Made by a program: the position numbers and the translations under genes. Positions 3,879-48,189 of a DNA stretch of 55,403 nt are shown here, one piece after another. The notes under the pieces are model-generated. The model saw only the letters and a program-made list of their open reading frames with translations. It was not told the DNA's origin and ran no database searches. The DNA is from a virus (taxonomy: Duplodnaviria > Caudoviricetes). The stretch covers positions 1 through 55,403 of the IMG/VR virus record IMGVR_UViG_3300051212_001061. One strand, written 5' to 3'. The first letter of the stretch is position 1; each line of letters opens with the position of its first letter.

Positions 3879-3893
3879 AAAGTTAATTATAAG

Positions 3894-10458: not shown

Positions 10459-10459
10459 T

Positions 10460-11221: not shown

Positions 11222-11226
11222 TTATA

Positions 11227-12018
11227 ATGGACAAAAATAAATCAATCTATAAACTTAAAGGTCTTCCTCCAATTTATTATTTAAATCTTGATGGACAACC
11301 TGAAAGATCAGAATATATGGAGAATCAATTTAAATATTGGGAAATTGAAAACTATACTCGTATTTCTGCTTATGATGGGCGCGAAGATGATTTAGGGCAC
11401 ATTCTTAAAGGAAAGTATCCTGATAATATGTCTTCTGGAGAAGTTGGATGTGTAACTTCTCACCTTAAAGCATTGGAGTATTTTTTGCAAAATTCAGATT
11501 CTCCCTGCGCTTTAATTATGGAAGATGATTGTGATTTAGATACTGTTAAGCATTGGTCTTTTAATTGGAAAGATTTCTTTTCAAAAGTTCCTTATGCTTA
11601 TGATGTAATTCAATTGGCAATTATTAATCCTGCTCAGGTTCATTTGAAAATTCACCGACGATTTGTGAATGACTTTTCAACCGCTTGTTATTTAATAACT
11701 AGACGTCACGCTCAAAAACTTATAGATCTACATGTAAGAGATGGAAAATATAAGTTGGATAATGGAGTTAAACCTAGAGCGGTTGCTGATGACTTAATTT
11801 ATAATTCTGGTAATACTTATGCTATACCATTATTTCTTTATAAGATTGAACTGGGGTCATCAATACATCGTGACCATGTTGATGTTTTTCATCGCAGTAG
11901 TTATGAAGGGTTGTGGCAATTTTGGAAAAATCAATCATCAGAAATAGATGATTGGAATGCAATCTTCGATTATGACCCTTATTTTGGAACACTTCCTCCT
12001 GGTTGGGAAGGGAAATAG
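11227..12018 (+). CDS. GT25-family glycosyltransferase
   Basis: YYLNLD...R, RISAYDG, GEVGCVTSH, IMEDD, STACYLI. Confidence 0.8.
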   Translation: MDKNKSIYKLKGLPPIYYLNLDGQPERSEYMENQFKYWEIENYTRISAYDGREDDLGHILKGKYPDNMSSGEVGCVTSHLKALEYFLQNSDSPCALIMEDDCDLDTVKHWSFNWKDFFSKVPYAYDVIQLAIINPAQVHLKIHRRFVNDFSTACYLITRRHAQKLIDLHVRDGKYKLDNGVKPRAVADDLIYNSGNTYAIPLFLYKIELGSSIHRDHVDVFHRSSYEGLWQFWKNQSSEIDDWNAIFDYDPYFGTLPPGWEGK

Positions 12019-32728: not shown

Positions 32729-33793
32729 ATGTTTGCAACAGATTTTACGGATCAATCATTAACAGGTACAGTTTCTATTAGTGGTGGAAACGGATCTTTT
32801 ATTAAAACATTATCTTTAGATTCTTTTAGAGAAGGAAGAGAATCTTTTTATGTCAATTTAAGAACAGGAAGTTCTAATGGACCAATTGTTGCAACTTCAA
32901 GACTCATAACTGTAAATGATACATCTCAACAAGAAACTCTAGGAGATTTATATCCATTTAGCACATTTACTTTTACAAATGGAGGAGCAACGGGAAGATT
33001 TGGTCCAACTTCATTTGCATCTGTTTCAAGTTATACTTCACAACCTTGGTATTATACTTATTTTACGGTAAGTTCTGGTATTCAGTTTTGGACCGCACCT
33101 GCTACTGGAAATTATACAATTCGTGCTGCTGGTGCTTCTGGGGGGCATTTTTTTGCGTCTTCTTATAGGGGTATAATTATAGAATCAACAATTGCTTTAA
33201 CAAAGGGGCAGCAATATAAAATATTAGTTGGGCAAATGGGTACAATATATGCTGGTTTTTCTGGTTATTCTAGTGGTGGTGGAGGGGGGACATTTATGTC
33301 CACTTCCGCTAATGTTCCAATTATAGTTGCTGGCGGCGCTGGTGGTGCAGACTCTAGCAGTGCTTCTAGCAATAGTAATTCTAATGGACAATCTGGAACA
33401 TCTGGAGCAAGTGGAGATTCTGGTGGTTTGGGTGGTTCTGGTGGTTTCGGCGGTGGAGGATCTTTTTATAGTGGTGGTGGTGGTGGTTTTTATGGTTCTG
33501 GATCTAATTCATCTAATGGAGGTGCTCTCGGTGGCGGTGGATCTGCATTTACGAGTGGTGGTCCTGGAGGAGACAGTTCTCCAGGTTCTTATGGTGGTTT
33601 TGGTGGCGGTGGTGGTTGTTGGGGTCCCAATGGATATGGCGCTGGCGGCGGCGGCGGATATAGTGGCGGCGGCGGTGGCAGTTATTTGGGGTCTGTTAGA
33701 TTTGGTGGTGGTGGGGGAAGTTACTCACAATCAGCAATTACGAATATTGGAACCAATTATGGGCATGGGTATTTGACTATTACTAAGATATAA
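32729..33793 (+). CDS. Glycine-rich (ALK/LTK-like polyglycine) receptor-binding/fibre-tip protein
   Basis: FTFTNGGATGRFGP, GIQFWTAPATGNYTIRAAGASGG, ILVGQMG, GGGGGTF, many poly-G tracts, GHGYLTIT. Confidence 0.75.
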   Translation: MFATDFTDQSLTGTVSISGGNGSFIKTLSLDSFREGRESFYVNLRTGSSNGPIVATSRLITVNDTSQQETLGDLYPFSTFTFTNGGATGRFGPTSFASVSSYTSQPWYYTYFTVSSGIQFWTAPATGNYTIRAAGASGGHFFASSYRGIIIESTIALTKGQQYKILVGQMGTIYAGFSGYSSGGGGGTFMSTSANVPIIVAGGAGGADSSSASSNSNSNGQSGTSGASGDSGGLGGSGGFGGGGSFYSGGGGGFYGSGSNSSNGGALGGGGSAFTSGGPGGDSSPGSYGGFGGGGGCWGPNGYGAGGGGGYSGGGGGSYLGSVRFGGGGGSYSQSAITNIGTNYGHGYLTITKI

Positions 33794-33800
33794 ACTTGTT

Positions 33801-33808
33801 TATAAATA
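33801..33808 (+). promoter_or_regulatory. T4-type late promoter
   Basis: Exact TATAAATA about 20 nt upstream of the ATG at 33830. Confidence 0.7.
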
Positions 33809-33829
33809 CAAAAAACTATGTAATTTAAG

Positions 33830-36800
33830 ATGGCAAGAAAGGTCATATTAGAAACTGCTTATACATTTACCCCTGGCAATTCTGGAGTAGGATCTCTTGT
33901 CATACCACGAGCAATTAAGAGAGAAAATTTAATATTAATCACTAACGTAACTAAAAATACAGTAATTTATAATTTTTCAGATCCTAATTTAAAAGCATCT
34001 TCTTATAGTATCACCACATCCGGAACTAATACAACAACTACGGTATATTTTGAATATAATACTGCTGGTATGAGCAGTTCTGATAAAATACAAATTGTAG
34101 TTGATGAATATGATGAAAAGTTTACTCCAGCAGAAACTTACACAGATCCAGTTAATAGATTTAGAATTTCGCAACCACAAGCATTAATTGATACTGACTT
34201 TGAATACGGAACTCAAACAACTAAGTGGGAAAATTTAGGATTAATTAATAATCGTCCATTTGCATACCAAAGACCAAATCCACTTTCTATAAGTTCAATT
34301 ACTTTAAACACTTCTTCTAAAACTGTCACTGTTGTTTTATCTACTGGAACAGCACCTGCAAACGGAACTTCTATTACTGTAACTGATACTTTTCTTTCAA
34401 TCGCAAATGGAAATTTTTTAATAGAATCTGGTGGTGGAACAGGAACATTTACTTATAGTGCTGGTGCAGTTAATACTACAGCAATTACTAGTATTTTTGA
34501 TACAAATAAAACGTTAATTTACGCTGGAGATTTATATACATCTGCTTCGATAGGAACTGCTCCTACTTCAATTACTACAAGTGGAAATGCTGTTACTGTC
34601 ACGACTAGTGTTCCTCACGGATTGGCAATAGGAAATGAAGTTGCTGTTACTGGAATTACTGGAACAAACCCACCAAATGGATCTTTTATTGTTACTACAA
34701 TTTTAAGTTCAACTCAATTTGTTTATTATGCTACTGCCGGAACTCCATCTGGATTATCTTTTGGATCTGCAAGAATTTATGTAAGACCACAAGCACAATT
34801 TTTGCATAGACCTTTTGATGGTGGAGTTATTTTTACTTCTAATGGTAATGCAAATTACGAAACCGCACTTCGCCAAACGAGAAGATATTTTAGATATCAA
34901 TCTGGTAAAGGCATTATGGTTAGTTCTGGAACCATAATCAAACCAAATTTGCAAGTTGATAGTATGACTGCAAGTGGTAGTACTGTCACGGTCCAAACAA
35001 AAGAAAAACATAATATTCTTCCTGGAACTACAGTTACGGTTAGTAATGCAACACCAAATGAATATAATGGAACTTTTGTAATTACTAGCATCACTGGAAA
35101 TAATACGTTTGAATATACTGCAAATTCTTCTCCCACATCTTCTCCTGCTGGTGGACTGTATTATGTTAGTGTGACAGGATGGTATGGATGTGCCAATCGT
35201 CTTGGTTTATTTGACTCTCAAAATGGAGTATATTTTGAATATGATGGCCAACAATTGTATGCCTGTAGGCGTAAATCAACGTTTCAATTATCTGGTAAAG
35301 TTACGGCAACAAACGAATCTAATACAATTACTCAAACAAGTTCATCTTTTCCAACGTATTTTACTAAGCAATTAAGACCTGGTGATTTTATTGTTATAAG
35401 GGGTCAATCATATCGTGTATATGATATTGCAAGTGATACTTCTTTAACAATATCTCCATCATATCGTGGAGCAACTGCATCTTATGCTATAGTTTCTTTA
35501 ACTGAAGACTTGAAAATCCCACAATCTCAGTGGAATATTGATAAATGTGACGGAACTGGACCTTCGGGATTTACTATTGATCTTGCAAGAATGCAAATGT
35601 TTTATATTGATTATTCTTGGTATGGTGCTGGATTTGTGAGGTGGGGATTTCGTGGACCTGATGGAAATGTTTTTTATTGTCATAAATTAGCAAATAATAA
35701 TGTAAATACTGAAGCTTATATGAGATCTGGTAATCTACCTGCCAGATATGAAAGCACCATAGAACCACCAAAAACTCTTCTCACTGGAACTCTTGCTTCT
35801 GGTGGATCTACACTATTTGTTGAAAGTACATCTGGATTTCCAAATACTGGAACTTTATGTATTCGTAATGCCAATACTTATGAGTATGTTAATTATAGTG
35901 GAATTGGTGCAACTAGTTTTACTGGATTGAATAGAGCACAGGCTGGATCATCAATTACTATTAGCGTTAATCAGTCTTCTAATGTTGCGACAGCAGTAAC
36001 AACAGCAGTTCAAGTTGGTCAAAGAATTGTTTCGACTGCCATTCCTGATGGATCTTTCGTAACAAGTATCGGGTCTGGAAGTGTTAGAATGAGTCAAGCT
36101 GCAACCTCAAGTGGATCTGCTTCTGCAGTATTTGCTCCCATGGGAGCTTCATCGGCTCAAACATTTACTTACTCTGCTACTGATCCAGTTGCAATTGAAC
36201 TTGCTTATCCTACTTTTGCTCCCACAATCTCTCATTGGGGAACAAGTGTAATTATGGATGGTAGATTTGATGATGATAAATCTTTGATCTTTACTTATGG
36301 TCAAGTTGCTCCTATTGCAGTTCCTGCTAATGGTACTAGAGCACTATTTTCAATTCGTGTTGCTCCATCTGTCGATAATAGTATTGGTGGTATTTTTGGT
36401 TCTAGAGAACTTGTTAATCGAATGCAGTTAGTTCTTAGACAGCTTGATGTTGCATCTCAGGCATTTGGAAACTCTTCACTTTTGGTAAGGGTGTATTTGA
36501 ATGGAATTCCATCAACTACAACTGCTTGGACAAATGCTGTTGGAAACGTGACAACAATCTCGAATTCAAGTTTAGCACAAATTGCAGACTATAGTGTTGG
36601 TGGTGGAACTACAGTATCTGGAGGTGAAGTTGTGGGGGGATTCTTTGTGGGGACTGGTGCTCAAAGTATTGATTTTACTCAACTTAGAGATTTGGGGAAT
36701 TCTGTTCTTGGTGGCGGCGGTCTTTACTCCAATTCTCAAATTTATCCAGATGGACCAGATACTGTGACAATTGTAGTTACTAATCTTACTAATACTCAAG

Positions 36801-36844
36801 TTAGTGTTTATGGAAGACTTTCTTGGACGGAGGCTCAGGCATAA
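33830..36844 (+). CDS. Large virion structural protein (baseplate/fibre-associated)
   Basis: Late promoter; Thr/Ser/Gly-rich beta repeats (VTVTT..PHGL..G..V.VTG...NG.F.V). Confidence 0.65.
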   Translation: MARKVILETAYTFTPGNSGVGSLVIPRAIKRENLILITNVTKNTVIYNFSDPNLKASSYSITTSGTNTTTTVYFEYNTAGMSSSDKIQIVVDEYDEKFTPAETYTDPVNRFRISQPQALIDTDFEYGTQTTKWENLGLINNRPFAYQRPNPLSISSITLNTSSKTVTVVLSTGTAPANGTSITVTDTFLSIANGNFLIESGGGTGTFTYSAGAVNTTAITSIFDTNKTLIYAGDLYTSASIGTAPTSITTSGNAVTVTTSVPHGLAIGNEVAVTGITGTNPPNGSFIVTTILSSTQFVYYATAGTPSGLSFGSARIYVRPQAQFLHRPFDGGVIFTSNGNANYETALRQTRRYFRYQSGKGIMVSSGTIIKPNLQVDSMTASGSTVTVQTKEKHNILPGTTVTVSNATPNEYNGTFVITSITGNNTFEYTANSSPTSSPAGGLYYVSVTGWYGCANRLGLFDSQNGVYFEYDGQQLYACRRKSTFQLSGKVTATNESNTITQTSSSFPTYFTKQLRPGDFIVIRGQSYRVYDIASDTSLTISPSYRGATASYAIVSLTEDLKIPQSQWNIDKCDGTGPSGFTIDLARMQMFYIDYSWYGAGFVRWGFRGPDGNVFYCHKLANNNVNTEAYMRSGNLPARYESTIEPPKTLLTGTLASGGSTLFVESTSGFPNTGTLCIRNANTYEYVNYSGIGATSFTGLNRAQAGSSITISVNQSSNVATAVTTAVQVGQRIVSTAIPDGSFVTSIGSGSVRMSQAATSSGSASAVFAPMGASSAQTFTYSATDPVAIELAYPTFAPTISHWGTSVIMDGRFDDDKSLIFTYGQVAPIAVPANGTRALFSIRVAPSVDNSIGGIFGSRELVNRMQLVLRQLDVASQAFGNSSLLVRVYLNGIPSTTTAWTNAVGNVTTISNSSLAQIADYSVGGGTTVSGGEVVGGFFVGTGAQSIDFTQLRDLGNSVLGGGGLYSNSQIYPDGPDTVTIVVTNLTNTQVSVYGRLSWTEAQA

Positions 36845-37383
36845 TGGCAAAATTAAGAGACGGAACTAGAATATACGGTTCTTTAATTGTAGATAATCAG
36901 TCATTAGTTGGAACTGCAATTTCTACAGGAACTGCATCTCAAGCATTACAGATTAGTGGTGGTGCTTATGTTTCTGGAAATGTTGGTATAGGAAGCACAA
37001 ATCCCCAATCCAAACTTTCTGTTGTTGGTAGTGTTAATGTATCTCAAACTATCACAGCAACAACATATTATGGTGATTGTTCTCAGATGTCAAATGTTCC
37101 TGCATTTGGAGTTACTGGGCAAGTGCAGTATAATAATAACGGAATTCAAACTGGTGCTCAATTTTTTAATTTTGATAATTCAACTTTTAATGTCGGTATT
37201 GGATCTTCAATACCAGGTAAAAAATTAGACGTTACTGGTGCAATTCAAATTACTCCAGGAACATCAGTAACTCCATCTAAAAATGGCGATCTTGTATTTG
37301 AATTTACAAATAATACAACACTAACCATAAGAGGACGAGGTTCGGATGGAGTTGTGAGATCTGCTACTATTACATTATCATAA
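36844..37383 (+). CDS. Tail-fibre-like protein
   Basis: GNVGIGSTNPQSKL and NVGIGSSIP fibre motifs. Confidence 0.65.
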   Translation: MAKLRDGTRIYGSLIVDNQSLVGTAISTGTASQALQISGGAYVSGNVGIGSTNPQSKLSVVGSVNVSQTITATTYYGDCSQMSNVPAFGVTGQVQYNNNGIQTGAQFFNFDNSTFNVGIGSSIPGKKLDVTGAIQITPGTSVTPSKNGDLVFEFTNNTTLTIRGRGSDGVVRSATITLS

Positions 37384-37384
37384 G

Positions 37385-37612
37385 ATGGTAAAAGAAATTA
37401 AACAAATTACAATAGAGAACAATACTGGAACTATTAAAGTTTTATTTGAGAAGCAAGATTCTTCTGGGCAAATTTATAAGTATATTTGCGAATCTAATTT
37501 TTATCTTGAAAATTGCATAGAAATTGATAAATTATCTGGACAAGAACTTATTGATTATGTTAATATTCTAAATTTAAATTGGATTGCTATTGAGCAAATC
37601 TACCCTGTTTGA
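37385..37612 (+). CDS. Hypothetical protein
   Basis: 75-aa ORF following the fibre gene. Confidence 0.5.
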   Translation: MVKEIKQITIENNTGTIKVLFEKQDSSGQIYKYICESNFYLENCIEIDKLSGQELIDYVNILNLNWIAIEQIYPV

Positions 37613-37637
37613 AGTATAATAGATAGTATAGTATAAT
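37609..37637 (+). promoter_or_regulatory. Sigma70-type promoter of the second glycan island
   Basis: TTGAAG(37609-14), 17 bp spacer, TATAAT(37632-37). Confidence 0.55.
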
Positions 37638-37659
37638 TATTTAAAATAAATTATAAATC

Positions 37660-38640
37660 ATGAGTAATTTTGTAAAACTTGCTTTGGAAAATGGTGGGAG
37701 TATTCACCCTTTAATTTTTCCGTCTTCTTATTTGCAAGGACCAGCAATTACAAATCCGTCAATTTATAATGATAATGGTAAAATTTTAGTTAATCTTAGA
37801 AATATAAATTATACTCTTTATCATTCTGAAAAGAAAAAATATGAGCATCAGTGGGGACCTCTTGTTTACATTCATCCAGAAAATGATCTTCATTTAAGAA
37901 CAAATAATGTAATGGGTGAAATGGATGAGACTATGAGTTTAAAATGGTATCATAGAGTAGATACTTCTTCCTTTGATACTTATCAACCACAGTGGGAATT
38001 TGTAGGTCTTGAAGATGCTAGAATTGTTAGGTGGGATGGAAGACTTTATATTTGTGGTGTAAGGAGAGATCTTGATACTATCGGAACTGGTAGAATGGAA
38101 CTATCAGAAGTGATTGTTTATGAAGACGGAGTTCGTGAAATAAATCGCTATAGAATTCCCGCTCCAGGAAATGATGACGAGTATTGTAATAAAAATTGGA
38201 TGCCAATTCTTGATATGCCATACCATTTTGTAAAGTGGACAAATGGTACGGAGATTGTTAAGTATGATATTAATACTGGAAAAACTGAAATAGTTTGTCA
38301 AACACAATGGAAAGATCTGGGATGTGTTGACCTTCGTGGTGGTTCGCAAGTATTGCCATTTGGTGAATATAGAATGTCTTTAAATCATGAGACATTCTTA
38401 TATCAAAGTCCTGCTGGAAGAAAGGATGGACATTATAGGCATCGTTTTATTGTTTGGGATAAAAATTGGGAAATAGTAACTGTATCTAAAAGATTTTCAT
38501 TCTTAGAAGCAAATGTTGAGTTTGCTGTTGGGATGTGTGAATTTGGGGATGATTATTTGATTACTTTTGGTTTTCAAGATAATGCGGCATATTTACTTAA
38601 AGTTCCTCAAAAATTTGTTAAGGAGTATATTTTCGAATGA
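37660..38640 (+). CDS. Putative five-bladed beta-propeller glycosidase/phosphorylase (GH130/GH43-like)
   Basis: TNPSI, GLEDARI, KNWMP, LRGGSQ, VEFAVG, ITFGFQD. Confidence 0.6.
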   Translation: MSNFVKLALENGGSIHPLIFPSSYLQGPAITNPSIYNDNGKILVNLRNINYTLYHSEKKKYEHQWGPLVYIHPENDLHLRTNNVMGEMDETMSLKWYHRVDTSSFDTYQPQWEFVGLEDARIVRWDGRLYICGVRRDLDTIGTGRMELSEVIVYEDGVREINRYRIPAPGNDDEYCNKNWMPILDMPYHFVKWTNGTEIVKYDINTGKTEIVCQTQWKDLGCVDLRGGSQVLPFGEYRMSLNHETFLYQSPAGRKDGHYRHRFIVWDKNWEIVTVSKRFSFLEANVEFAVGMCEFGDDYLITFGFQDNAAYLLKVPQKFVKEYIFE

Positions 38641-39368
38641 GAGTAGCAGTTTGTATTTCTGGTGTTATTAGATATCCTCATTTGGGACTAGAAAGCTTAA
38701 AAACAATTATTCCCAATGATGAAATTAAAGTTTTTATTCACACCTGGAAAATAAAAAATAGAGAAGAATTTATAAAGACAGTACATGATGTAAAAAATAA
38801 AGAAGAAGATAAAACAGTAGATACTGACATAAATTTTATTCACAATAATTATGAATATGAAAGCCTTCTTATAGAAGATTATGATTCAAAGCAAAAGTAT
38901 TTTCAACATATTTTTACATCTTTAGAATTTTCTGAGTATTTGAGAACTGATGTTGGACCTATAAGTATGCATTATTCCATTTATAGGTCTAATCAACTTA
39001 AAAAGAAATATGAAGAAATGCATGGAATAACCTTTGATAGAGTTATTCGTATGAGATTTGATAGTGATTTTAAAGGAGTTGAATTAAATCTAAAAGATTT
39101 AAATTATGACGTTTCTATACCTTTCGGTAGTGATTGGGCTGAAGGTATTAATGATCAATTTGCTGTTGGGTCATCATATGGAATAGATTTATATTCAAAT
39201 ATGTTTTGGAATTATCATAATATCCAAAAAAATCAAAATAGTAAATTTCATCCCGAAAGTATTTTAAAAAATAATCTTGATTTTTATAATATAATTCCGC
39301 ATAGATTTGATTTTAATGTCGATATTAACAACGGAATAGATTGGAGAAGAGTATATTTTCACTCTTAA
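38637..39368 (+). CDS. Glycan-biosynthesis-associated hypothetical protein
   Basis: VAVCISG.IR, VFIHTW, IRMRFD, NDQFAVG, HPE pattern. Confidence 0.5.
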   Translation: MRVAVCISGVIRYPHLGLESLKTIIPNDEIKVFIHTWKIKNREEFIKTVHDVKNKEEDKTVDTDINFIHNNYEYESLLIEDYDSKQKYFQHIFTSLEFSEYLRTDVGPISMHYSIYRSNQLKKKYEEMHGITFDRVIRMRFDSDFKGVELNLKDLNYDVSIPFGSDWAEGINDQFAVGSSYGIDLYSNMFWNYHNIQKNQNSKFHPESILKNNLDFYNIIPHRFDFNVDINNGIDWRRVYFHS

Positions 39369-39392
39369 ACACTTAAAATATATTTAAATTTT

Positions 39393-40292
39393 ATGAAAGT
39401 ATTATTCGTAACAAACCATATTCAAGATTACATGAAAGATATGGTTTACCATGGTTTAATTGATAGTGGAATTGATGTTTATGAAACTTATCCTCCACAT
39501 TATATGATGAAATATTATCTTGATTCCGATCAATCCACTAGTTCTGATTTTATTAGAAAATTTGATGGTAATAACACTAAGGGATTTACTGTATATTGTA
39601 AGTTAGATCATCAACCAAATGTAGAAACCCCAGAAGTTATTATTGATAAGATAAAATCAAAATTCTATGATCTAGTAATTTATGGGTGTGTATATACTCA
39701 TCCTTGGTTTCCTCAAAGACAATGTTTGGATTACTTGGAATATGTTAAAGAATACTATCCAAAAAATAAAGTTCATTTTATTGATGGTGCGGATGAACCA
39801 GACGATTTTGCGGGGCAGTCTGGTTTGCATCAATATGGAATAGTATGGAAGAGAGAATTATATGATATTAGTATTGCAAATCCAATTTCTTTTGCAATAC
39901 CAGAAAGTCAATTTATAGATCATATTCCAGAAAAAGAAAAGATATTTGGGCATGTTGTTCCTGGATATGCTGACACTTATATTTTCGATGATGAAAAATT
40001 ATATTATGAAGATTACTCTAAATCTTATTACGGGAGAACATGCAAAAAAATGGGATGGGATTGTTTGCGGCATTATGAAATTCTTGCAAATAGAAGTATT
40101 CCATATTTTACTGATTTAAAAGATTGCCCCCCATATATTATGACATCTTTTCCAAAATCTCTCATTTTAGAAACAAATAAATATGCGATGAAAGGCAAAA
40201 TACATCCTCAATATGATCAAATTTGTGAATATCTTTTTGACTTTTCTAAAAAAAATTTAACAACAAAAAAATTGGCTCAATTGTTTTTTTAA
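39393..40292 (+). CDS. Putative glycosyltransferase-like protein
   Basis: FIDGAD, WKRE, PISFAIP, GWDCLRHYEI..PYF. Confidence 0.5.
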   Translation: MKVLFVTNHIQDYMKDMVYHGLIDSGIDVYETYPPHYMMKYYLDSDQSTSSDFIRKFDGNNTKGFTVYCKLDHQPNVETPEVIIDKIKSKFYDLVIYGCVYTHPWFPQRQCLDYLEYVKEYYPKNKVHFIDGADEPDDFAGQSGLHQYGIVWKRELYDISIANPISFAIPESQFIDHIPEKEKIFGHVVPGYADTYIFDDEKLYYEDYSKSYYGRTCKKMGWDCLRHYEILANRSIPYFTDLKDCPPYIMTSFPKSLILETNKYAMKGKIHPQYDQICEYLFDFSKKNLTTKKLAQLFF

Positions 40293-40295
40293 TTC

Positions 40296-41009
40296 ATGAA
40301 CATTGTAATACCAATGGCTGGGGAAGGAACTAGATTTCCCAGAGATACTTATAAAATTCCAAAACCATTAATTGAAATTAATGGAGTTCCGATGATTAAA
40401 ATGGCGACAGAATCTTTAGGATTAACTGGAACTTATCATTTTGTAATACGGAAGGATAGTTATTATGATCAGGTATGTACTCTCCTTCATGCTATTTTTC
40501 CAACATCTAAAATTATCAGTGTAGATGAAACGACTGAAGGTCCAGCATCTAGTTGTCTTCTTTTTAGAGATTTAATTGATAATGAAGATGAACTTGTAAT
40601 TGCAAATTGTGATCAAATTATGTGGTGGGATCCAGATTTATTTCTTACTGCAGCAAGATATTATAAGTATGATGGATTGATTGTTACTTACAGTACATCG
40701 ACGCCAAAAAACAGTTATGCTAGAATTGATAAAAATGGTTTTGTTCGAGAAATAAAAGAAAAAGAAGTTATAAGTGATATTTCATTAAATGGGATTCATT
40801 ATTGGAGAAAGGGAAAGTATTTTGTACAAAGTGCAGAAAGTATGATAAAATATAATGATAGAGCACCTAATGGTGAATTTTATGTTGGACCAACTTATAA
40901 TCACATGATTAACCAGGGCCTTAAAGTAGGTATTCATCACATACCCAATTGGCAGCATAATCCAGTTGGAGTTCCAGAAGATTTAGAAACTTTTATTTCA
41001 AAATTATGA
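40296..41009 (+). CDS. Sugar-phosphate nucleotidyltransferase (paralog of 1768-2490)
   Basis: IVIPMAGEGTRF, PKPLI, TEGPA, ANCDQ, EK.VIS, GEFYVGPTYN, VGVPEDL. Confidence 0.85.
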   Translation: MNIVIPMAGEGTRFPRDTYKIPKPLIEINGVPMIKMATESLGLTGTYHFVIRKDSYYDQVCTLLHAIFPTSKIISVDETTEGPASSCLLFRDLIDNEDELVIANCDQIMWWDPDLFLTAARYYKYDGLIVTYSTSTPKNSYARIDKNGFVREIKEKEVISDISLNGIHYWRKGKYFVQSAESMIKYNDRAPNGEFYVGPTYNHMINQGLKVGIHHIPNWQHNPVGVPEDLETFISKL

Positions 41010-41329
41010 ATCTGAGTAAATTAAAAGATTATCATAGGGGATGGATCATTGGTGATTTTGATCCATCTGTTTTAAGAACAAAAGATTTTGAAGTTGGAGT
41101 TCTGTTTCATCCCAAAGGTGAAAAATGGGCAGCACATTATCATAAGGATAGTGTAGAATATAATGTATTAATTAATGGAAAAATGATTATCCAGGGTAAA
41201 GAACTTAATTCTGGAGATGTATTTGTTTTTGAAAAGGGAGAAATTGCAGATCCAGTTTTTATTGAGGATTGCACAGTTTTGTGTGTAAAAGTTCCCTCCA
41301 TTCCTTTAGACAAATATGAGGTAAAATAA
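41006..41329 (+). CDS. Cupin-fold protein (possible sugar isomerase/epimerase)
   Basis: GWIIGDF, the HYHK..VEY cupin metal motif, and G.V. Confidence 0.7.
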   Translation: MNLSKLKDYHRGWIIGDFDPSVLRTKDFEVGVLFHPKGEKWAAHYHKDSVEYNVLINGKMIIQGKELNSGDVFVFEKGEIADPVFIEDCTVLCVKVPSIPLDKYEVK

Positions 41330-42045
41330 TGTACGCTTATTCGATTAAAGTAGATTTAAACAATTCTAAAACTCAATTATGTGAGTTGGGATCCAAATAT
41401 GAAACTACCAAATCTCCATTTTTGGATTTTAATTTGAACAATAATCTTGAAAGGAGAGAATGTAATTCTTATACTCCATTTTATAATTTTTTGTTCTCTT
41501 CATTGAAGTATAAAAAAATTAATTTTGGAGAAATTGGAATCTATAAAAATGGTTCAATGAAAATGTGGAGGGATTATTTTCCTAATGCTAATCTTTATGG
41601 TTGGGATTGTAAACCAGAATCTGCGGATGAACCTAGATATAGAGTTGTTGATTTTGTTGAAAAAGCAAAAAAAGACAATTTAATTAATGTCTCTTATGAT
41701 TATATGGATGTTAGGGGAGAGGAATCAATTTCTCGGGCATTGGGAAAAACAAAATGTAAATTTGACATTTTAATTGACGATTCTGATCATGAATTTTGGT
41801 CTCAAATAAAAGTGATCAGAAGTGCTCCAAATTATTTGAATCCAGGATCTTTTTTAATCATAGAAGATGTAAATTATACAGTCACTCCCGAATATTCTTT
41901 TGCAAGATATATAGAAGAAATATCTAGATATGGTCATGACGTTTACTATGATTCTATATTAAAAGTTAATACAAAACATTTTAAAGAAACAACAAGACAT
42001 CCAAACAGTTGTTTAATAGTCTTGACCAGAAATAATTTTAATTAA
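41329..42045 (+). CDS. Class I SAM-dependent (sugar) O-methyltransferase
   Basis: EIGI..GS..MW.DYFPNA.LYGWD, FDILIDDSDH, GSFLIIED. Confidence 0.8.
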   Translation: MYAYSIKVDLNNSKTQLCELGSKYETTKSPFLDFNLNNNLERRECNSYTPFYNFLFSSLKYKKINFGEIGIYKNGSMKMWRDYFPNANLYGWDCKPESADEPRYRVVDFVEKAKKDNLINVSYDYMDVRGEESISRALGKTKCKFDILIDDSDHEFWSQIKVIRSAPNYLNPGSFLIIEDVNYTVTPEYSFARYIEEISRYGHDVYYDSILKVNTKHFKETTRHPNSCLIVLTRNNFN

Positions 42046-42062
42046 AATTTGAGAGAAATGAC

Positions 42063-43301
42063 ATGAAGTTTTTTAGAGAACTGACTGAACAAGAAAAAAA
42101 TCGTTGTGTAGTTGCAACGTATAAAATGAGTTCCTTTAAAGACATTGGAACCTTAAAAGATGTTGCTTGGAACCTTGCCATAGGACAAAGTGTTGGCAAT
42201 CCTAAGATTAGAAATGCTTGGGAAACTGATGAACTTTTTGAGCAATCTTCTTGTGTTATATACGAAGAAGAAAAATATCTTGAATCTGTAGGAGCAGGAA
42301 TTGTTAAAATTGGATTCCCAATTATCAACACTGATTGGGAAGGTGATGGAATATCTCATTTGATGTGCCAATTAATGGGTGGACAACTTGATATAGATGT
42401 TGTTAGGACTTGCAGACTAGAAAAAATAGAATTTCCTAAAGAGGTTGAAGATAAATTTCTTGGACCTAAAAATGGCATTGATGGAATTCGTAAGTTTGTC
42501 AATCGTTATGATAAACCACTTTCTGGTGCTATTGTAAAACCAAAGACTGGTATTTCACCACAAACTCTTTCTGAAATGGTGAAAGAACTTCTTGATGGTG
42601 GAGTAGATTTTATTAAAGAAGATGAGATTCTTGCAAACCCATCTTTTTGTAGTCTTGAAGATCGTGTAGAACTTATTTCTAATATTGTCAACAACTGCGG
42701 TAGAAATGTCATCTATGCTTTCTGTATTAATGGTGATCATCATACCGTTCTTGATCGTGCTAAGTTTGTTGCTGATAATGGTGGAAATGGTATTCATATT
42801 AATTTTTGGTCTGGTCTTGGGGTTTATAATTCAATTAGAAAAATGGACCTACCGCTGTTTATTCACTATCAGAAGAGTGGGGACAAAATTCTTACGGATA
42901 AACGCCACGCATTTGGAATAGATTGGAATGTTCTTTGCGACCTTGCTGGTCTATGTGGTGTGGATACTATTCATGCTGGAATGTGGGGTGGATATTTAAG
43001 TGATGATGAAGATGAACTTCGTCAAACTCTTGATATTTTACATCGTCGGAATGTTCTTCCTGCATTAAGTTGTGGTATGCACCCAGGAATCGTTAATACC
43101 ACTGCAGAAAAGTTCGGAACAGATTTTCTTGCAAATTGTGGTGGAGCAATCCATGGGCACCCCGAAGGCACCTTAGCGGGCGCTCTAGCTATGCGTCAGG
43201 CAATAGATAAAACACCTGGACCAGAGTTTCGTGCTGCCATAGATAAGTGGGGTTATGAAACTGGAGGTGGATCACTTCCCGAATGGGTGCTTGAGTTTTA
43301 A
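42063..43301 (+). CDS. RuBisCO-like protein (form IV RLP)
   Basis: GP..GIDGIR, IVKPKTG, GGVDFIKEDE, GVDTIHAG, PALSCG.HP, GGAIHGHP.G..AGA.AMRQA; several carboxylation residues are substituted. Confidence 0.93.
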   Translation: MKFFRELTEQEKNRCVVATYKMSSFKDIGTLKDVAWNLAIGQSVGNPKIRNAWETDELFEQSSCVIYEEEKYLESVGAGIVKIGFPIINTDWEGDGISHLMCQLMGGQLDIDVVRTCRLEKIEFPKEVEDKFLGPKNGIDGIRKFVNRYDKPLSGAIVKPKTGISPQTLSEMVKELLDGGVDFIKEDEILANPSFCSLEDRVELISNIVNNCGRNVIYAFCINGDHHTVLDRAKFVADNGGNGIHINFWSGLGVYNSIRKMDLPLFIHYQKSGDKILTDKRHAFGIDWNVLCDLAGLCGVDTIHAGMWGGYLSDDEDELRQTLDILHRRNVLPALSCGMHPGIVNTTAEKFGTDFLANCGGAIHGHPEGTLAGALAMRQAIDKTPGPEFRAAIDKWGYETGGGSLPEWVLEF

Positions 43302-43332
43302 TTGTTTTATTTTAAATTAATCGGAGAAAAAA

Positions 43333-43980
43333 ATGGTTCCTGTTATTCCTAGTTTACAAGTATTTGTTGATAAAATTCGTGAAGTTTATGGTGATAAAGA
43401 TCCAGAAGTTATTTTAGATATTGGATCTAGAGATTTGGATTGTAGTGTAGATCTTCTTAAATATTTTCCTGAAGCGAGAATTATTGCATTTGAACCAATC
43501 CCTTGGCAATATAACAATTGTTTAGAAAGAGCAAATAAACTTTATAATATTGAAGTTTATAATTTTGCATTATCCGATGAAGAAGGTGAATTGGACTTTT
43601 GGGAAGTTCATGGAAATCCAGGAGGATCATCCATGTTTGAACCGATTGATGTTCCTTATAGTTCTGGATCATGGTCTAAAACTGTAGTTCAATCAAGAAG
43701 ATTAGATAATGTTCTAAAAAGCTTAAATGTTTCAAAAGTTGATTGTATTTGGATGGATACGCAAGGATCTGAACTCAAAGTTCTTAAAGGTATGGGAACT
43801 TATCTAGATTCTGTTAGGGCTATTCATACCGAAGCATGTCCAAAACCATATTATAAAGGGCAAGTTTTGAAGAGTGATTTGGAAAATTATTTAATTGAAA
43901 ATAATTTTATTATCGATCAATTTATAGCTGCTCCTAATCATCCTTACGATGAAGGTGATTTAATTTGCATTAAAAAATAA
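43333..43980 (+). CDS. FkbM-family methyltransferase
   Basis: ILDIGS, IAFEP, ALSD, GGSS, RLD, WMDTQGSEL.VLKG. Confidence 0.85.
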   Translation: MVPVIPSLQVFVDKIREVYGDKDPEVILDIGSRDLDCSVDLLKYFPEARIIAFEPIPWQYNNCLERANKLYNIEVYNFALSDEEGELDFWEVHGNPGGSSMFEPIDVPYSSGSWSKTVVQSRRLDNVLKSLNVSKVDCIWMDTQGSELKVLKGMGTYLDSVRAIHTEACPKPYYKGQVLKSDLENYLIENNFIIDQFIAAPNHPYDEGDLICIKK

Positions 43981-43985
43981 TTTTT

Positions 43986-44903
43986 ATGATTGATTTCAAA
44001 GTATCTTTAATATGTGCATGTAAAAATAGATATAATGCTCTTAGAGTTGCATTAAATTCTTGGTTGGCGTTTGATCAAATACATGAAATTATAATTGTTG
44101 ATTGGGATTCTGATGAATCTATTTCACATCTATCTAAATTAGATGATAGAATTAAAATTATTGAGGTTAAAAGCAAACCGTATTTTAATCAACCTCAACC
44201 TTTAAATCTTGCTGCAAGTATTGCTACTGGAAATTACATCTTAAAAGTGGATTGTGATTACATTCTCAATCCATATTATAATTTTTTTGATGCATATCCA
44301 GTAGATAATAATACTTTTATTTCTGGCAAGAGTAATTATCAAGCTCCTGAGTATTATTCCGAATCTCATGGTGGATATGTAATCGACATGCATCAAATGA
44401 GACCAGAAGAAATTGTTGATTATACTGTTTCTTATAGTCCTTATTTTAAATTTTTAATTGGTCTTTTATTAATCAGCAAAGAAAATTTCTTGAGATGTGG
44501 TGGATATAACGAAAATCTTACTAAATGTTATGCTTTTGAAGATGAAGAACTTTATGCTAGATTAAAATTGATGGGTCTTAAAGAAACTAGATTACGTCAT
44601 GATTATCATGCAATTCATATTCCTCATCCTGATAAAAAAAGAACGGAATATTTTGAGGGATTTTCTTGGGAATCTGATTTCATAAAAATGGTTCAAGAAA
44701 ATATGAGAAATCAGGGACATACTGAGCAGGAAGTTCAATGGCAAGTTGAATATGCTTTAGCTCAAAAACATATTGACCAAAATAAAGAAATGATTGGTGA
44801 AATTACCGAATATTGTGTTCAATCAAAATCAAATTGGAGAGTTTATGAGATGTGTAAAAATGTATACAACGCTATAGAAGTTTTACCATTAAATAAATTA
44901 TGA
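43986..44903 (+). CDS. GT2/GT7-like glycosyltransferase
   Basis: ACKNR, IIIVDWDS, KVDCD, GGYNE...YAFEDEELYARL. Confidence 0.75.
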   Translation: MIDFKVSLICACKNRYNALRVALNSWLAFDQIHEIIIVDWDSDESISHLSKLDDRIKIIEVKSKPYFNQPQPLNLAASIATGNYILKVDCDYILNPYYNFFDAYPVDNNTFISGKSNYQAPEYYSESHGGYVIDMHQMRPEEIVDYTVSYSPYFKFLIGLLLISKENFLRCGGYNENLTKCYAFEDEELYARLKLMGLKETRLRHDYHAIHIPHPDKKRTEYFEGFSWESDFIKMVQENMRNQGHTEQEVQWQVEYALAQKHIDQNKEMIGEITEYCVQSKSNWRVYEMCKNVYNAIEVLPLNKL

Positions 44904-45712
44904 TGTATTCTGATTTCACTTTAGTAGTTCAGGGTCCAACTAATGACTCTACTAAAATAGATTTTTTAGATTCTATAGATTACTATAAGACCCTATTCTC
45001 TAAAATAATATTATCAACTTATGACGAGCATATTTGTGATAATAAAAATCTTTTAAAAATATGTGAAGAAAAAAACATAGAAATAGTAACTCAAAGTCTA
45101 GAGAATGGAATAAACAATCTATCATTTAAAGACTTTGATGAAAATCATGACATGGATAATGATTGTGGAATTAAATTCCAAACTGTTAGTACTTTAATTG
45201 CTTTAAAAAATGTTCATACTCCTTATGTTTTAAAACACAGAGTTGATGAAAGATATTCAAATTTGCATTTGATCTTGGATAAGTTTTTATTAGATACTGA
45301 AAAATTAGTAACTGGTGGAACTTTTTTTGGGCAAAAAGTTTATTTTGAATATTGTGCAGCAGATCATTTAATGGTTTCTAGAACTGGCAAAATGATAAAC
45401 ACATTTGAAAAAACTTTAGAGATGATAAATTCTGGTATTTTAGATAGTGGACCAGAAATAATGTATACAAAAAATTTCATTAGAATTTCTGGAGAAAATC
45501 CTACAAGTGAAAATCACGATATTCTTATGAAAAAGTATATTGATTTCTTACCGGACAAATATATGGAACCATTTGTTATACGTGCAAATCATTGGAATCA
45601 GATTTGGACAACTGCAGAATCTCTGGGTCATAGAAGAAATGCCTATGAAACGATAGATGATATGATAAACAGTGAAATCGTAGTTTTAAATCAATTTTAT
45701 AATTATAGTTGA
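44900..45712 (+). CDS. WavE-like protein
   Basis: LVVQGP, IILSTY, QTVSTL.AL, LKHRVD, ADH, PE. Confidence 0.6.
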   Translation: MMYSDFTLVVQGPTNDSTKIDFLDSIDYYKTLFSKIILSTYDEHICDNKNLLKICEEKNIEIVTQSLENGINNLSFKDFDENHDMDNDCGIKFQTVSTLIALKNVHTPYVLKHRVDERYSNLHLILDKFLLDTEKLVTGGTFFGQKVYFEYCAADHLMVSRTGKMINTFEKTLEMINSGILDSGPEIMYTKNFIRISGENPTSENHDILMKKYIDFLPDKYMEPFVIRANHWNQIWTTAESLGHRRNAYETIDDMINSEIVVLNQFYNYS

Positions 45713-45718
45713 GGTAAT

Positions 45719-47104
45719 ATGAACAACTCATTAATGATGGCAAGTTATTCGGATAAAAAACAAAAATTAATTAATTTTCCAAAAGTTTATTATATTAGCT
45801 TAGAAGAAAGTGAAGACAGAAGAGAAAACTTGAGAAAAAGTTTCTTGAAATATGGAATTTATAATTTACAAGATGTAATTTCTAAAAGATATTCTGAATC
45901 GAATGATCAAGTTTCTGGACCACAATTGCATATTCTTGATGGTGGAACTATAGGATGTGTAGTTTCTCACATTAAAATGATTAAAAAGTGGTATGAAGAA
46001 ACTGATGACGAATATGCATTCTTTTGTGAAGATGATCTTAGTTTAGAAACTGTCGATAATTGGAATTTTACTTGGGATGACTTTGTAAACAATCTCCCCG
46101 AAGATTGGGATTGTGTTCAACTTTGTTGCATTAAACCCTCTCACGATTCTATTATTCTTAAAGAAAGATCTATGTATGATTGGTCAGTGACCGCATACAT
46201 TATGAAGCGCGATTATGCTAAAAAAATTATAGATCGCTATTGTTTTGGGGATAAATTTAATCTTGAGATTTATGGAACTGATTTTTATCCTATGCCAGAA
46301 ACAGTTCTTTTTTATGATATTGGAAAAGTTTACGCTGTAGATTTGTTTGTTGAGGAAGTAAAGTTTCAGTCAACATTTACTGAAACAGCAAATATTGAAG
46401 GTGGTACTAAGGACCATCATGCAGAAAGCCAAGAATTTGTGTCATCTTGGTGGGAAAAAAATGGACAGAACATTACCATTCAGGAACTTGTTGGTAATGA
46501 GCAACCAAAAACTGTAAGAGAAAAAACTGAATTGGAAGATCTCCTAACAAAATTTTCTCTTGATACTGAAAATGCAGTACATAATTTTAATCTAGGTGTT
46601 TGGTATGAAAATGGTGGTCATACTGCACCAGCTCTTTCTTACTACTTGAGAGCAGCGGAAAGATCTGAAGATGATAATCTTACTTACGAGGCACTTATTA
46701 GAGGATCTTATTGTTACGATAAGCAAGGTACTAGAGATAATAGTTCTAAATCTCTTTTAACTCAAGCACTGTGCTCAGTTCCATTAAGACCAGAAGCATA
46801 TTTTCTTTTAAGTAGATTTGCTGAACGTAGGAGTCAGTGGATGGAAGCATATACTTTTGCTTGTCAAGGTTTGGAATATGCAACATTCGATCATCCAAAT
46901 CTTATCACTGATGTTGAATATCCTGGTAAGTATGGGTTGATCTATCAGAAAGCACTTTCTGGATGGTGGTGGGGTAAGTCTGAGGAATGTAAAGAATTAT
47001 TCCAAGATCTTATGACAAACTACCAGATGGATAATTATTATCTAGAAAGATCCAAAGAACATATTGCAAGTTTTAATCTTGAAATTGTAGAAAAAAAGAA
47101 TTGA
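45719..47104 (+). CDS. GT25-like glycosyltransferase fused to a TPR-like helical domain
   Basis: YYISL...RR, GCVVSH, FCEDD, WSVTAYI; C-terminal ALSYYLRAAE, RPEAYFLLS. Confidence 0.7.
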   Translation: MNNSLMMASYSDKKQKLINFPKVYYISLEESEDRRENLRKSFLKYGIYNLQDVISKRYSESNDQVSGPQLHILDGGTIGCVVSHIKMIKKWYEETDDEYAFFCEDDLSLETVDNWNFTWDDFVNNLPEDWDCVQLCCIKPSHDSIILKERSMYDWSVTAYIMKRDYAKKIIDRYCFGDKFNLEIYGTDFYPMPETVLFYDIGKVYAVDLFVEEVKFQSTFTETANIEGGTKDHHAESQEFVSSWWEKNGQNITIQELVGNEQPKTVREKTELEDLLTKFSLDTENAVHNFNLGVWYENGGHTAPALSYYLRAAERSEDDNLTYEALIRGSYCYDKQGTRDNSSKSLLTQALCSVPLRPEAYFLLSRFAERRSQWMEAYTFACQGLEYATFDHPNLITDVEYPGKYGLIYQKALSGWWWGKSEECKELFQDLMTNYQMDNYYLERSKEHIASFNLEIVEKKN

Positions 47105-47904
47105 TGCAGAACAATAACTTTGAAAAAATTGACATTGTTCTGCAAGGAAGATACGATGAGTTTACTAATGAAGTCATAGATTCATACTTTGAATTACCTT
47201 TTGTAAATAACATCATTCTTTCTTGCTGGGAAGATGATGTTGTTACATACATTCCAAATTCAAGATTCTTTGTTGTCTCAAATAAGTTTCCAATTACTCC
47301 AGGAACAGATAATAGAAATCTACAAATTGTAACGTCTTTTGTAGGTCTTCAAAAAGTTACAACTGAATATGCTATTAAGATGAGAACTGATCAAAAATAT
47401 ACTTATCAAAGTATGTTAAACATGTATCAGTTCTTTATAGATCATAGGAATGAAGATAGAATATTTGTTCCTGGAATGTATCCTCATTTGTTATTTCACC
47501 CAAGAGATCATGTTTTCTGGGGAAAAACTGAGCATTTAATTAAAATGTTTGATATTCCTCTAGAGATAAATGGACTTATTGACAAAATAAGAATAAGCAA
47601 GTATGATCTATGGAAATATTATGGTCACTTTATAAGAACTGAAACTTATATTGGGGCACATTATTGCTCTAACTATGATGATAGAATTAAATTATTTTTA
47701 CTCTATCCAAATGAATATCTTTATGATTATGCTCCAAATTGGGAAGAAGTTTATAAAATTAGTCAAGAATTAACTAAAAAGATATTTAAATGCTTTCCCA
47801 AAACTGATATTGATCTAACGTGGCCTAAGAAAAATTTATCTTCTTATCCATATGAAGATCAAAAAAATGGATACAATGAATGTTGGCATGAAGATGGATT
47901 ATAA
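47101..47904 (+). CDS. WavE-like protein
   Basis: IVLQG, IILSCW, NLQIVTS..GL, KMRTD, FHPRDHVFWG. Confidence 0.65.
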   Translation: MMQNNNFEKIDIVLQGRYDEFTNEVIDSYFELPFVNNIILSCWEDDVVTYIPNSRFFVVSNKFPITPGTDNRNLQIVTSFVGLQKVTTEYAIKMRTDQKYTYQSMLNMYQFFIDHRNEDRIFVPGMYPHLLFHPRDHVFWGKTEHLIKMFDIPLEINGLIDKIRISKYDLWKYYGHFIRTETYIGAHYCSNYDDRIKLFLLYPNEYLYDYAPNWEEVYKISQELTKKIFKCFPKTDIDLTWPKKNLSSYPYEDQKNGYNECWHEDGL

Positions 47905-47932
47905 ATTAAATATAAATTAAATATAAATTAAT
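47901..47932. repeat. 11-bp AT-rich tandem repeat (ATAAATTAAAT, about 3 copies)
   Basis: Read directly from the sequence, upstream of glutaredoxin. Confidence 0.6.
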
Positions 47933-47952
47933 TACAATAGAAAAGGAGTTTT

Positions 47953-48189
47953 ATGAATTTTACGGTATATTCAAAACCAGATTGCCCTTATTGTTATAAA
48001 ATTAAACAAGTATTAGAATTGACAGCAAGTAACTTTGTGGTTTATAATTTAGGAGAGCACTTTACTAAAGAAGAATTTTATTCCGAATTTGGTAAAGGAA
48101 CCACATTCCCTCAAGTTATTTGTAATGACAAAAAACTTGGTGGGTGTACAGATACTATTAACTTTTTGAAAGAGAATAAAGTTGTCTAA
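47953..48189 (+). CDS. nrdC: Glutaredoxin
   Basis: CPYC active site, TFPQV, LGGC; AAGGAG RBS. Confidence 0.9.
   Translation: MNFTVYSKPDCPYCYKIKQVLELTASNFVVYNLGEHFTKEEFYSEFGKGTTFPQVICNDKKLGGCTDTINFLKENKVV

Follow-up and report, generated by a model that had tools for sequence, protein, structure and literature searches.

A RuBisCO-like protein gene linked to a nucleotidyltransferase in a glycan island of a cyanophage fragment

RuBisCO-like proteins (RLPs) act in salvage, catabolism or the stress response, according to the available portions of two studies that name their functions (PMC6302742, PMC6389311). MtnW, as the available text of PMC6302742 has it, is the 2,3-diketo-5-methylthiopentyl-1-phosphate (DK-MTP-1-P) enolase of methionine salvage in Bacillus. 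About 80 'form IV-like' RLPs, some of them from myoviruses of about 200 kb, were reported from IMG/VR phage contigs by Jaffe et al. in 2018 (PMC6389311); the accessible part of that report describes them as highly divergent, as retaining part of the catalytic residues and as unclear in function. The RLP considered here is encoded in IMG/VR record IMGVR_UViG_3300051212_001061, the whole of which (55,403 nucleotides (nt), rated 27% complete) was analysed and is called the window below. It lies in a glycan island of about 10 kb, in a run of five genes with a sugar nucleotidyltransferase (NTP-transferase), a cupin and two methyltransferases (Table 1). The NTP-transferase is conserved beside this RLP in phages and in cells, which supports a functional coupling of the RLP to nucleotide activation, as judged from genomic context. 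With moderate confidence, we suggest that the RLP makes or remodels a sugar or ketol phosphate that its partner would activate with a nucleotide for glycan decoration.

The neighbourhood of the RLP was sampled in 120 loci (80 viral and 40 cellular) with the RLP as the sole query, and open reading frames (ORFs) were called and neighbours clustered. An NTP-transferase gene lies within 2 kb of the RLP gene in 77 of the 80 viral and 35 of the 40 cellular loci, and in 113/120 once the Azospirillum locus L109, missed through the choice of ORF, is added. L109, from Azospirillum oleiclasticum RWY-5-1-1, has a complete operon (3891-6749) of a glycerophosphodiester phosphodiesterase (GDPD)-like protein, RLP, cupin and NTP-transferase. 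In six of the seven loci without the transferase, the MtnW-like outgroup L120 among them, one flank is shorter than 2 kb, which leaves L078 as the only such locus with full flanks. The two genes share a strand in 110 of 112 cases. Their order is NTP-transferase-cupin-RLP in phages and RLP-NTP-transferase in DPANN archaea and Legionellaceae, and the linkage is also seen in SAR11 and Verrucomicrobiota. The initial annotation had proposed the RLP to be linked to both the NTP-transferase and the cupin, outside any methionine-salvage or apiose context. The context is as proposed, and so is the linkage to the transferase; that to the cupin is less universal (73 of the 120 loci, 66 viral and 7 cellular, or 74 with L109). 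The NTP-transferase itself belongs to the sugar-phosphate nucleotidyltransferase family (PF00483), its AGEGTRF stretch matching the N-terminal G-x-G-T-R signature. It reaches no NCBIfam equivalog cut-off, and its best PDB match is 4evw (2.6e-12), an entry whose specificity is not known.

Gene fusions also join the two proteins. A search among longer proteins (5532 candidates) gave three matches: P0121 and P0122 (813 and 817 aa) are RLP-NTP-transferase-cupin fusions, and P0123 (724 aa) joins an RLP to a stretch 43% identical to residues 164-296 of the 299-aa protein encoded just upstream of the window NTP-transferase. Because these are single database gene calls, the DNA was examined as well, and uninterrupted RLP-NTP-transferase ORFs of 664-671 aa were found in 6/80 metagenome loci, one of them a 669-aa ORF in L265. 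They represent three sequence types (identity at most 80%), both of their Pfam domains exceed the cut-offs, and they retain the RLP signature motifs given below, apart from small changes in DFIKEDE and a single one in SCG. A cupin continues every available stretch downstream of these ORFs, and a GDPD-like ORF and a second NTP-transferase follow in three of the four fusion loci examined. No fusion was seen among 76 further viral loci. Loci found with the fusion-protein query gave NTP-transferase co-occurrences of 74/76 and 68/80, which are not used as statistics because the query patterns include transferase and cupin peptides. The NTP-transferase family has other fusion partners too, namely a cupin (L224), a GDPD (L093) and, in S-CAM9, SAR11 and others, a haloacid dehalogenase (HAD) domain. 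A single coding sequence (CDS) of phage S-SKS1 (NC_020851.1, L124 5001-6428) combines the NTP-transferase with 3,4-dihydroxy-2-butanone 4-phosphate (DHBP) synthase (RibB; PF00926, 5.4e-65). In the transferase tree its transferase domain groups with those linked to RLPs (SH-aLRT 81; long branch), and the CDS adjoins genes for phosphoheptose isomerase and transaldolase.

The window RLP is a member of the RuBisCO large-subunit superfamily, as initially annotated, since both Pfam domains exceed their cut-offs: PF00016 with E=1.3e-43 and 149.8 bits (cut-off 30.1), and the N-terminal PF02788 with 21.5 bits, just over its cut-off of 20.7. Residues were compared in two alignments, one made with HMMER to the P. 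horikoshii RuBisCO 2cwx and one made with MAFFT that included genuine form I and form III RuBisCOs; the alignments themselves were computed, and the spinach residue numbers used here are ones that we take to correspond by motif. The RLP retains K175 (its own K159), K177 (K161), K201 (K185), D203 (D187), E204 (E188), H327 (H304), S379 (S336) and the phosphate-loop glycines G403/G404 (G360/G361). Replacements are found at E60 (G41), T65 (N46), N123 (G107), H294 (Q270), R295 (K271), K334 (Y311) and G380 (C337). Apart from the phosphate-loop glycines, T65 and G380, these positions had been assigned by eye as kept or substituted, and all of them hold in the alignments.

Comparison of 116 RLP homologues (35-88% identity) shows that the carbamylated lysine and the Mg ligands (K185, D187, E188) are invariant in 116/116, in keeping with the superfamily, and that K159, K161, Q270, Y311 and the phosphate-binding glycines vary little or not at all. 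The signature GQSxGNPxxR / MGGxxDI / KPK / DFIKEDE / QKSG / GMxGGY / SCG is present in at least 95% of them. Since the replacements in the carboxylase site are themselves invariant across the clade, they point to an enzyme with a new, fixed specificity rather than a decaying gene. The dN/dS of the window RLP against three phage homologues is 0.055-0.084, which indicates purifying selection, with dS close to saturation. The catalytic set of bona fide RuBisCO (forms I-III) is broken by G41, G107, Q270 and Y311 at E60, N123, H294 and K334, and the scores fall short of the RuBisCO cut-offs in NCBIfam (TIGR03326, 208.8 vs 497; NF003252, 201.4 vs 438; NF010002, 113.2 vs 489). A superfamily member without the carboxylase residues fits the general definition of form IV, and the protein is best explained as a catalytically competent, non-carboxylating enzyme of a distinct form IV lineage, as far as its sequence and those of its homologues can tell.

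Archaeal form III RuBisCO is the closest match of the RLP among solved structures (2cwx, 6.4e-42), solved RLP structures scoring lower, and also in NCBIfam (TIGR03326), where every equivalog model stays well short of its cut-off; the two have K175, K177, K201, D203 and E204 in common. The RLP differs in lacking E60, N123, H294 and K334 and in missing the TIGR03326 cut-off. For the RLP tree (65 rows, IQ-TREE quick, LG+G4), a minimum length of 370 aa was applied, L120 was dropped, and rows were thinned wherever identity to one already kept reached 85%, leaving 53 of 111. Its references are four form I, one form III, one MtnW-like (L127) and five OiaX-like sequences, without IV-Photo, DeepYkrW, AMC or true Bacillus MtnW. 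The RLPs form a clade of 54 rows (29 viral and 25 cellular; SH-aLRT 100, stem 0.73) apart from all these references. The window RLP nests among phage sequences, with SAR11 as the next relatives; DPANN archaea, a second SAR11 group and Verrucomicrobiota form the sister group, and Legionellaceae, Francisellaceae and one Elusimicrobia genome lie at the base. A 4.6-kb contig binned in a Methanobacteriota metagenome-assembled genome (L081) carries a phage-type NTP-transferase-cupin-RLP-GDPD module 74-79% identical to that of the window; its RLP nests inside the phage clade, and the contig is probably a mis-binned phage. The Woesearchaeota genome of L088 holds a genuine form III RuBisCO (581 bits vs cut-off 497) in addition to its RLP. 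The gene immediately upstream of this RLP, on the other strand, encodes a GHMP-kinase/nucleotidyltransferase fusion (L088 6061-7863).

The window RLP is probably one of the phage 'form IV-like' proteins of Jaffe et al. (2018); it was matched to them by description, since both are found on myovirus-type phage contigs and are divergent from named RLP clades. The available text of that paper mentions neither fusions nor a genomic association with a nucleotidyltransferase, a cupin or glycan genes, and the cellular relatives that it gives are Beckwithbacteria (PMC6389311), as against SAR11, DPANN archaea, Legionellaceae, Verrucomicrobiota and Azospirillum here.

Two small proteins frequently accompany the RLP and its transferase. 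The cupin scores 20.1 bits in Pfam, below the cut-off of 27, and is placed in the cupin superfamily by the double-stranded beta-helix fold of its AlphaFold (AF2) model and by its motif-1 ligands (HxH...E). The model has a mean predicted local distance difference test (pLDDT) score of 96.7 and a Foldseek probability of 1.0 to small metal cupins, with matches to the archaeal phosphomannose isomerase 7zvm, KdgF, the dimethylsulfoniopropionate lyases DddK/Q and quercetin dioxygenase. Two of the ligands, H44 and E51, do not vary among 40 sequences, and the third, H46, is conserved in at least 90% of them. The second protein, of 150 aa and GDPD-like, occurs in 73/120 loci and has the motifs HRG..EN..ExD..GHD. 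It has no Pfam family, its AlphaFold model (pLDDT 90.8) has glycerophosphodiester phosphodiesterases as weak best fold matches (1.6e-3), and a PDB sequence search gave chance matches only. Protein-atlas matches of the cupin to Cupin_2 (0.96-0.97) and of the GDPD-like protein to GDPD (0.87) serve as leads only. The GDPD-like gene is absent from the window in a tblastn search with all 73 cluster members.

The initial annotation had also counted both methyltransferases as parts of the system, and this did not hold up. The methyltransferase between cupin and RLP has phrog_21658 'methyltransferase' (1.5e-9) as its sole family match, with none in Pfam or NCBIfam. Its homologue (cluster 15) occurs in only 12/120 loci, and the FkbM methyltransferase is not conserved beside the RLP across loci, which makes both of them local decoration. 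Other neighbours include homologues of the 299-aa protein (cluster 11, 15 loci) and of the 243-aa glycan-island protein (cluster 4, 47 RLP loci). A LicD gene (PF04991, 1e-42) adjoins RLP-NTP-transferase in 4/4 Legionellaceae loci, and a phmmer search with the Legionella LicD over the ORFs of the 120 loci and the window found only these four LicD proteins, so that the LicD link does not extend to the other lineages sampled. In L110 a glycosyltransferase family 2 (GT2) gene adjoins the RLP, and the phage loci contain GT2, GT25 and WavE-like genes, epimerases and DegT aminotransferases.

In the reading that we favour, the RLP would be the committed enzyme of a small mobile module, together with a dedicated NTP-transferase and often a His/His/Glu metal cupin and a minimal GDPD-like phosphodiesterase. 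The substrate of the RLP would be a ketose phosphate of central metabolism, probably a pentulose phosphate, which the enzyme would enolise or isomerise, and the cupin, where present, might isomerise or trim the intermediate. The NTP-transferase would then join the phosphate to a nucleoside monophosphate, giving a CDP- or other NDP-linked unit, and transferases would add this unit to a surface glycan, the candidates being LicD in Legionellaceae and the glycosyltransferase-like genes of the phage island. LicC/LicD and CDP-ribitol are pathways of CDP-alcohol activation, in which a LicD-type enzyme transfers the phospho-unit to a glycan, and the presence of LicD in all four Legionellaceae loci fits such a CDP-X / phospho-X transfer logic. 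A precedent is the CDP-6-D-fructose/glucitol pathway of C. jejuni HS:5, in which, according to the available text (PMC10918830), a cytidylyltransferase acts on a ketose phosphate to give CDP-6-D-fructose; here too the activated phosphate is non-anomeric and the nucleotidyltransferase has the same fold. None of these pathways is known to use an RLP, and in a further difference from them the window NTP-transferase reaches no equivalog cut-off. The reading of the RLP in the initial annotation is supported as regards its coupling to the nucleotidyltransferase and not as regards the methyltransferases as conserved parts.

A more specific and still unlikely version of this scheme, drawn by analogy, has the RLP and cupin act on a pentulose phosphate in the manner of MtnW/MtnD: an enolisation would come first, and a metal-dependent rearrangement or the cleavage of a C-C bond second. 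The product, reached by a second route, would be a shortened or rearranged ketol phosphate of the RibB/DHBP-synthase kind, to be CDP-activated and linked through a phosphodiester as a surface decoration. The fusion of the same transferase family to DHBP synthase in S-SKS1 is the reason for considering RibB-like chemistry. If this version is true, the outcome would be a new surface modification common to SAR11, DPANN archaea and aquatic phages.

Several observations weigh against a dedicated glycan-activating module. The RLP-adjacent NTP-transferases comprise at least three subtypes, and the label 'adjacent' needs seven changes on the transferase tree, so the partner has been swapped; no single co-evolving transferase clade was found on the same tree. 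Of the 40 cellular loci, 22 with full flanks (after adding L109) had no called cupin and 15 with full flanks no called GDPD-like gene, a further 10 loci having a short flank in each case, and the window too lacks the GDPD-like gene. The module has no kinase or mutase, and if the transferase requires an anomeric sugar-1-phosphate, the RLP product would be an odd substrate. The NTP-transferase and GDPD-like genes also occur without the RLP in cultured Synechococcus phages. Phages with both genes and no RLP include S-CAM9 (L123), S-PRM1, S-8S53/55/56, B3/B23, DSL-LC03, Bellamy, S-SM2 and SynMITS9220M01. Genes for HAD proteins or the heptose pathway often lie beside the two, of which the GDPD-like one mostly lacks an annotation.

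The product may also be something other than a glycan unit. In the Verrucomicrobiota locus L108 the module is followed by genes for a fatty-acid desaturase and an HI0933-like flavoprotein, which suggests lipids rather than glycans. The module could then make a lipid head group or a small molecule linked to a nucleotide, for instance a polar lipid, a cofactor, an osmolyte or a nucleotide with a signalling or anti-defence function. The GDPD-like partner has a fold of lipid and phosphodiester enzymes, and no glycosyltransferase is universally conserved beside the RLP, both of which agree with such a product. Most loci, including the window, are nevertheless dense in glycosyltransferases, sugar epimerases, aminotransferases or LicD, and we regard a non-glycan product as unlikely.

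A salvage or catabolic role for the RLP in methionine salvage or in apiose or tetronate breakdown, with the adjoining transferase there by coincidence, is very unlikely. The pairing of RLP and cupin does recall MtnW and MtnD, MtnD also being a cupin. The MtnW/MtnX/MtnD part of Bacillus methionine salvage resembles the module further in having an RLP that enolises a ketose phosphate alongside a phosphoesterase and a metal cupin. OiaX/OiaT of D-apiose catabolism are likewise form IV enzymes, which act on branched sugar-acid phosphates, and the RLPs characterised in the accessible text of PMC6302742 and PMC6389311 act in salvage or catabolism. The window RLP, however, scores 164.7 vs 409 and 128.2 vs 513.6 bits with the MtnW models NF007095 and TIGR03332, and 158.6 vs 700 with the OiaX model NF042437. 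It keeps K177, which is Ser in the MtnW-like reference, and lies in no mtn context, its partner being a nucleotidyltransferase; OiaX/OiaT differ in being catabolic. Its clade is apart from the five OiaX-like references and, as the initial annotation required, from the MtnW-like one, which is the single reference L127 on a long branch. The RLP-NTP-transferase fusions also speak against coincidence. The sample's one MtnW-like locus (L120) lacks a called transferase, on a contig that is short.

It is hardly probable that the RLP is a cyanophage auxiliary metabolic gene product that binds or diverts ribulose 1,5-bisphosphate (RuBP) and throttles the host Calvin cycle alongside the phage transaldolase. 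The window does encode psbA and psbD (phrog_182; 2.7e-199 and 3.2e-173) and a transaldolase, and the RLP keeps both phosphate-site glycine motifs and has K271 at the R295 position. The same module is found, however, in SAR11, Legionellaceae, DPANN archaea and Verrucomicrobiota, the RLP gene lies in the glycan island away from the photosynthesis genes, and the RLP is fused to the transferase in other lineages. That the RLP domain is a subunit which senses a ligand or serves as a scaffold for the nucleotidyltransferase, with no catalysis of its own, would also fit fusion and tight adjacency. It is most improbable, as the active-site residues hardly vary, if at all, in 116 sequences, just as catalysis would predict.

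Because Jaffe et al. 2018 had reported about 80 of them on phage contigs, a phage-borne RLP is not new, and to this extent the system is not as undescribed as the initial annotation had suggested (PMC6389311, available part). The nucleotidyltransferase link is the part of that claim that stands: in the literature covered, which includes few subscription journals and extends to the text of Jaffe 2018 and not to its supplementary phage map, no account of RLPs in connection with a nucleotidyltransferase, a cupin, fusions or glycan islands was found. The accessible part of a 2026 survey of rubisco genomic context likewise mentions neither phage nor IV-like proteins. If the favoured reading is true, a biosynthetic role would be seen for the first time in an RLP clade, one wired and in places fused to a nucleotidyltransferase, and the large phage 'IV-like' group, unexplained since 2018, would have a function. 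With the module present in SAR11 and aquatic phages, the product could be common on cell or virion surfaces without having been recognised there, and could influence how phages and hosts recognise each other. This is testable, since Azospirillum oleiclasticum RWY-5-1-1, which is in culture, has all four genes of the operon, and the natural fusions offer single-polypeptide material.

The five ORFs from NTP-transferase to FkbM methyltransferase were placed by ORF calling where the initial annotation had them, all on one strand and tightly packed, with overlaps of 4 nt and 1 nt followed by gaps of 17 nt and 31 nt (Table 1). Pfam likewise bears out the setting of the RLP among glycosyltransferases, with GT2, GT25 and WavE-like neighbours.

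Table 1. Genes of the RLP locus and other features of the window
Feature	Coordinates	Strand	Product length	Remarks
PfkB-like kinase piece	1088-1771			Second glycan island (1088-12018)
NTP-transferase paralogue	1768-2490			Second island; same family, 35% identical to 40296-41009
GDP-mannose 4,6-dehydratase	3894-4895			Second island, which has two other epimerase/dehydratase genes
GT11 fucosyltransferase-type gene	5744-6598			Second island
GT25	11227-12018			Second island
Collagen-repeat ORF	20956-26811		1951 aa	15 collagen triple-helix repeat matches (PF01391, 4.9e-144)
Two glycan-island genes	37660-39368	+	326 aa and 243 aa	No known family; 243 aa: weak DUF7796 match
299-aa protein	39393-40292	+	299 aa	Without Pfam or PHROG family
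Nucleotidyltransferase (NTP-transferase)	40296-41009	+	237 aa	PF00483, 33.7 bits (cut-off 21.2)
Cupin	41006-41329	+	107 aa	Small metal type; frequent accessory
Probable class I methyltransferase	41329-42045	+	238 aa	Variable insertion between cupin and RLP
RuBisCO-like protein (RLP)	42063-43301	+	412 aa	Form IV type; module core
FkbM-family methyltransferase	43333-43980	+	215 aa	PF05050 1e-18, TIGR01444 6.6e-25; variable neighbour
GT2, WavE-like, GT25 + tetratricopeptide repeat (TPR), WavE-like genes	43986-47904	+		PF10111/PF00535, PF07507, PF01755

The window is, on its gene content, a fragment of a T4-like freshwater cyanophage. Besides the two photosynthesis genes and the transaldolase it encodes gp32, PhoH, ThyX and a virion structural protein (phrog_5838), and a structural protein of the window is about 45% identical to its counterparts in T4-like Synechococcus phages. 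Freshwater metagenomes from several studies contain DNA nearly identical to it. Contigs from an independent study tile positions 33000-48000 and reproduce the gene order; one covers 39057-42625 in one piece with 9 differences from the window, and a second covers 42596-45670 with 1 difference. As these contigs tile the module, an assembly chimera of phage and cellular DNA, which had been named as a possible objection, is excluded. No cultured phage with an RLP turned up when the protein was compared by tblastn with 50,697 GenBank phage records. Matches in a metatranscriptome run are two 151-nt contigs of depth 2, identical to 40454-40604 and 40764-40914 in the NTP-transferase gene, and one 36-nt piece with 3 mismatches on the RLP gene; they are not counted as expression, since the library may contain DNA.

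In the closest relatives of the window (L004, L005 and L042, with neighbours 90-98% identical), a 159-aa GDPD-like gene lies between the WavE-like and GT25 genes. At the corresponding site (L005 11625-12104) the window has a mere 6-nt spacer (45712-45719). The window RLP is 88% identical to those of L005 and L042, the flanking genes are 93-98% identical, and the window has the extra methyltransferase between cupin and RLP. The comparison suggests mosaic exchange at the RLP spot of the window.

A second glycan island lies near the start of the window and, like the first, contains an NTP-transferase and a GT25 gene. The collagen-repeat ORF, upstream of the virion structural genes, probably encodes a fibre protein.

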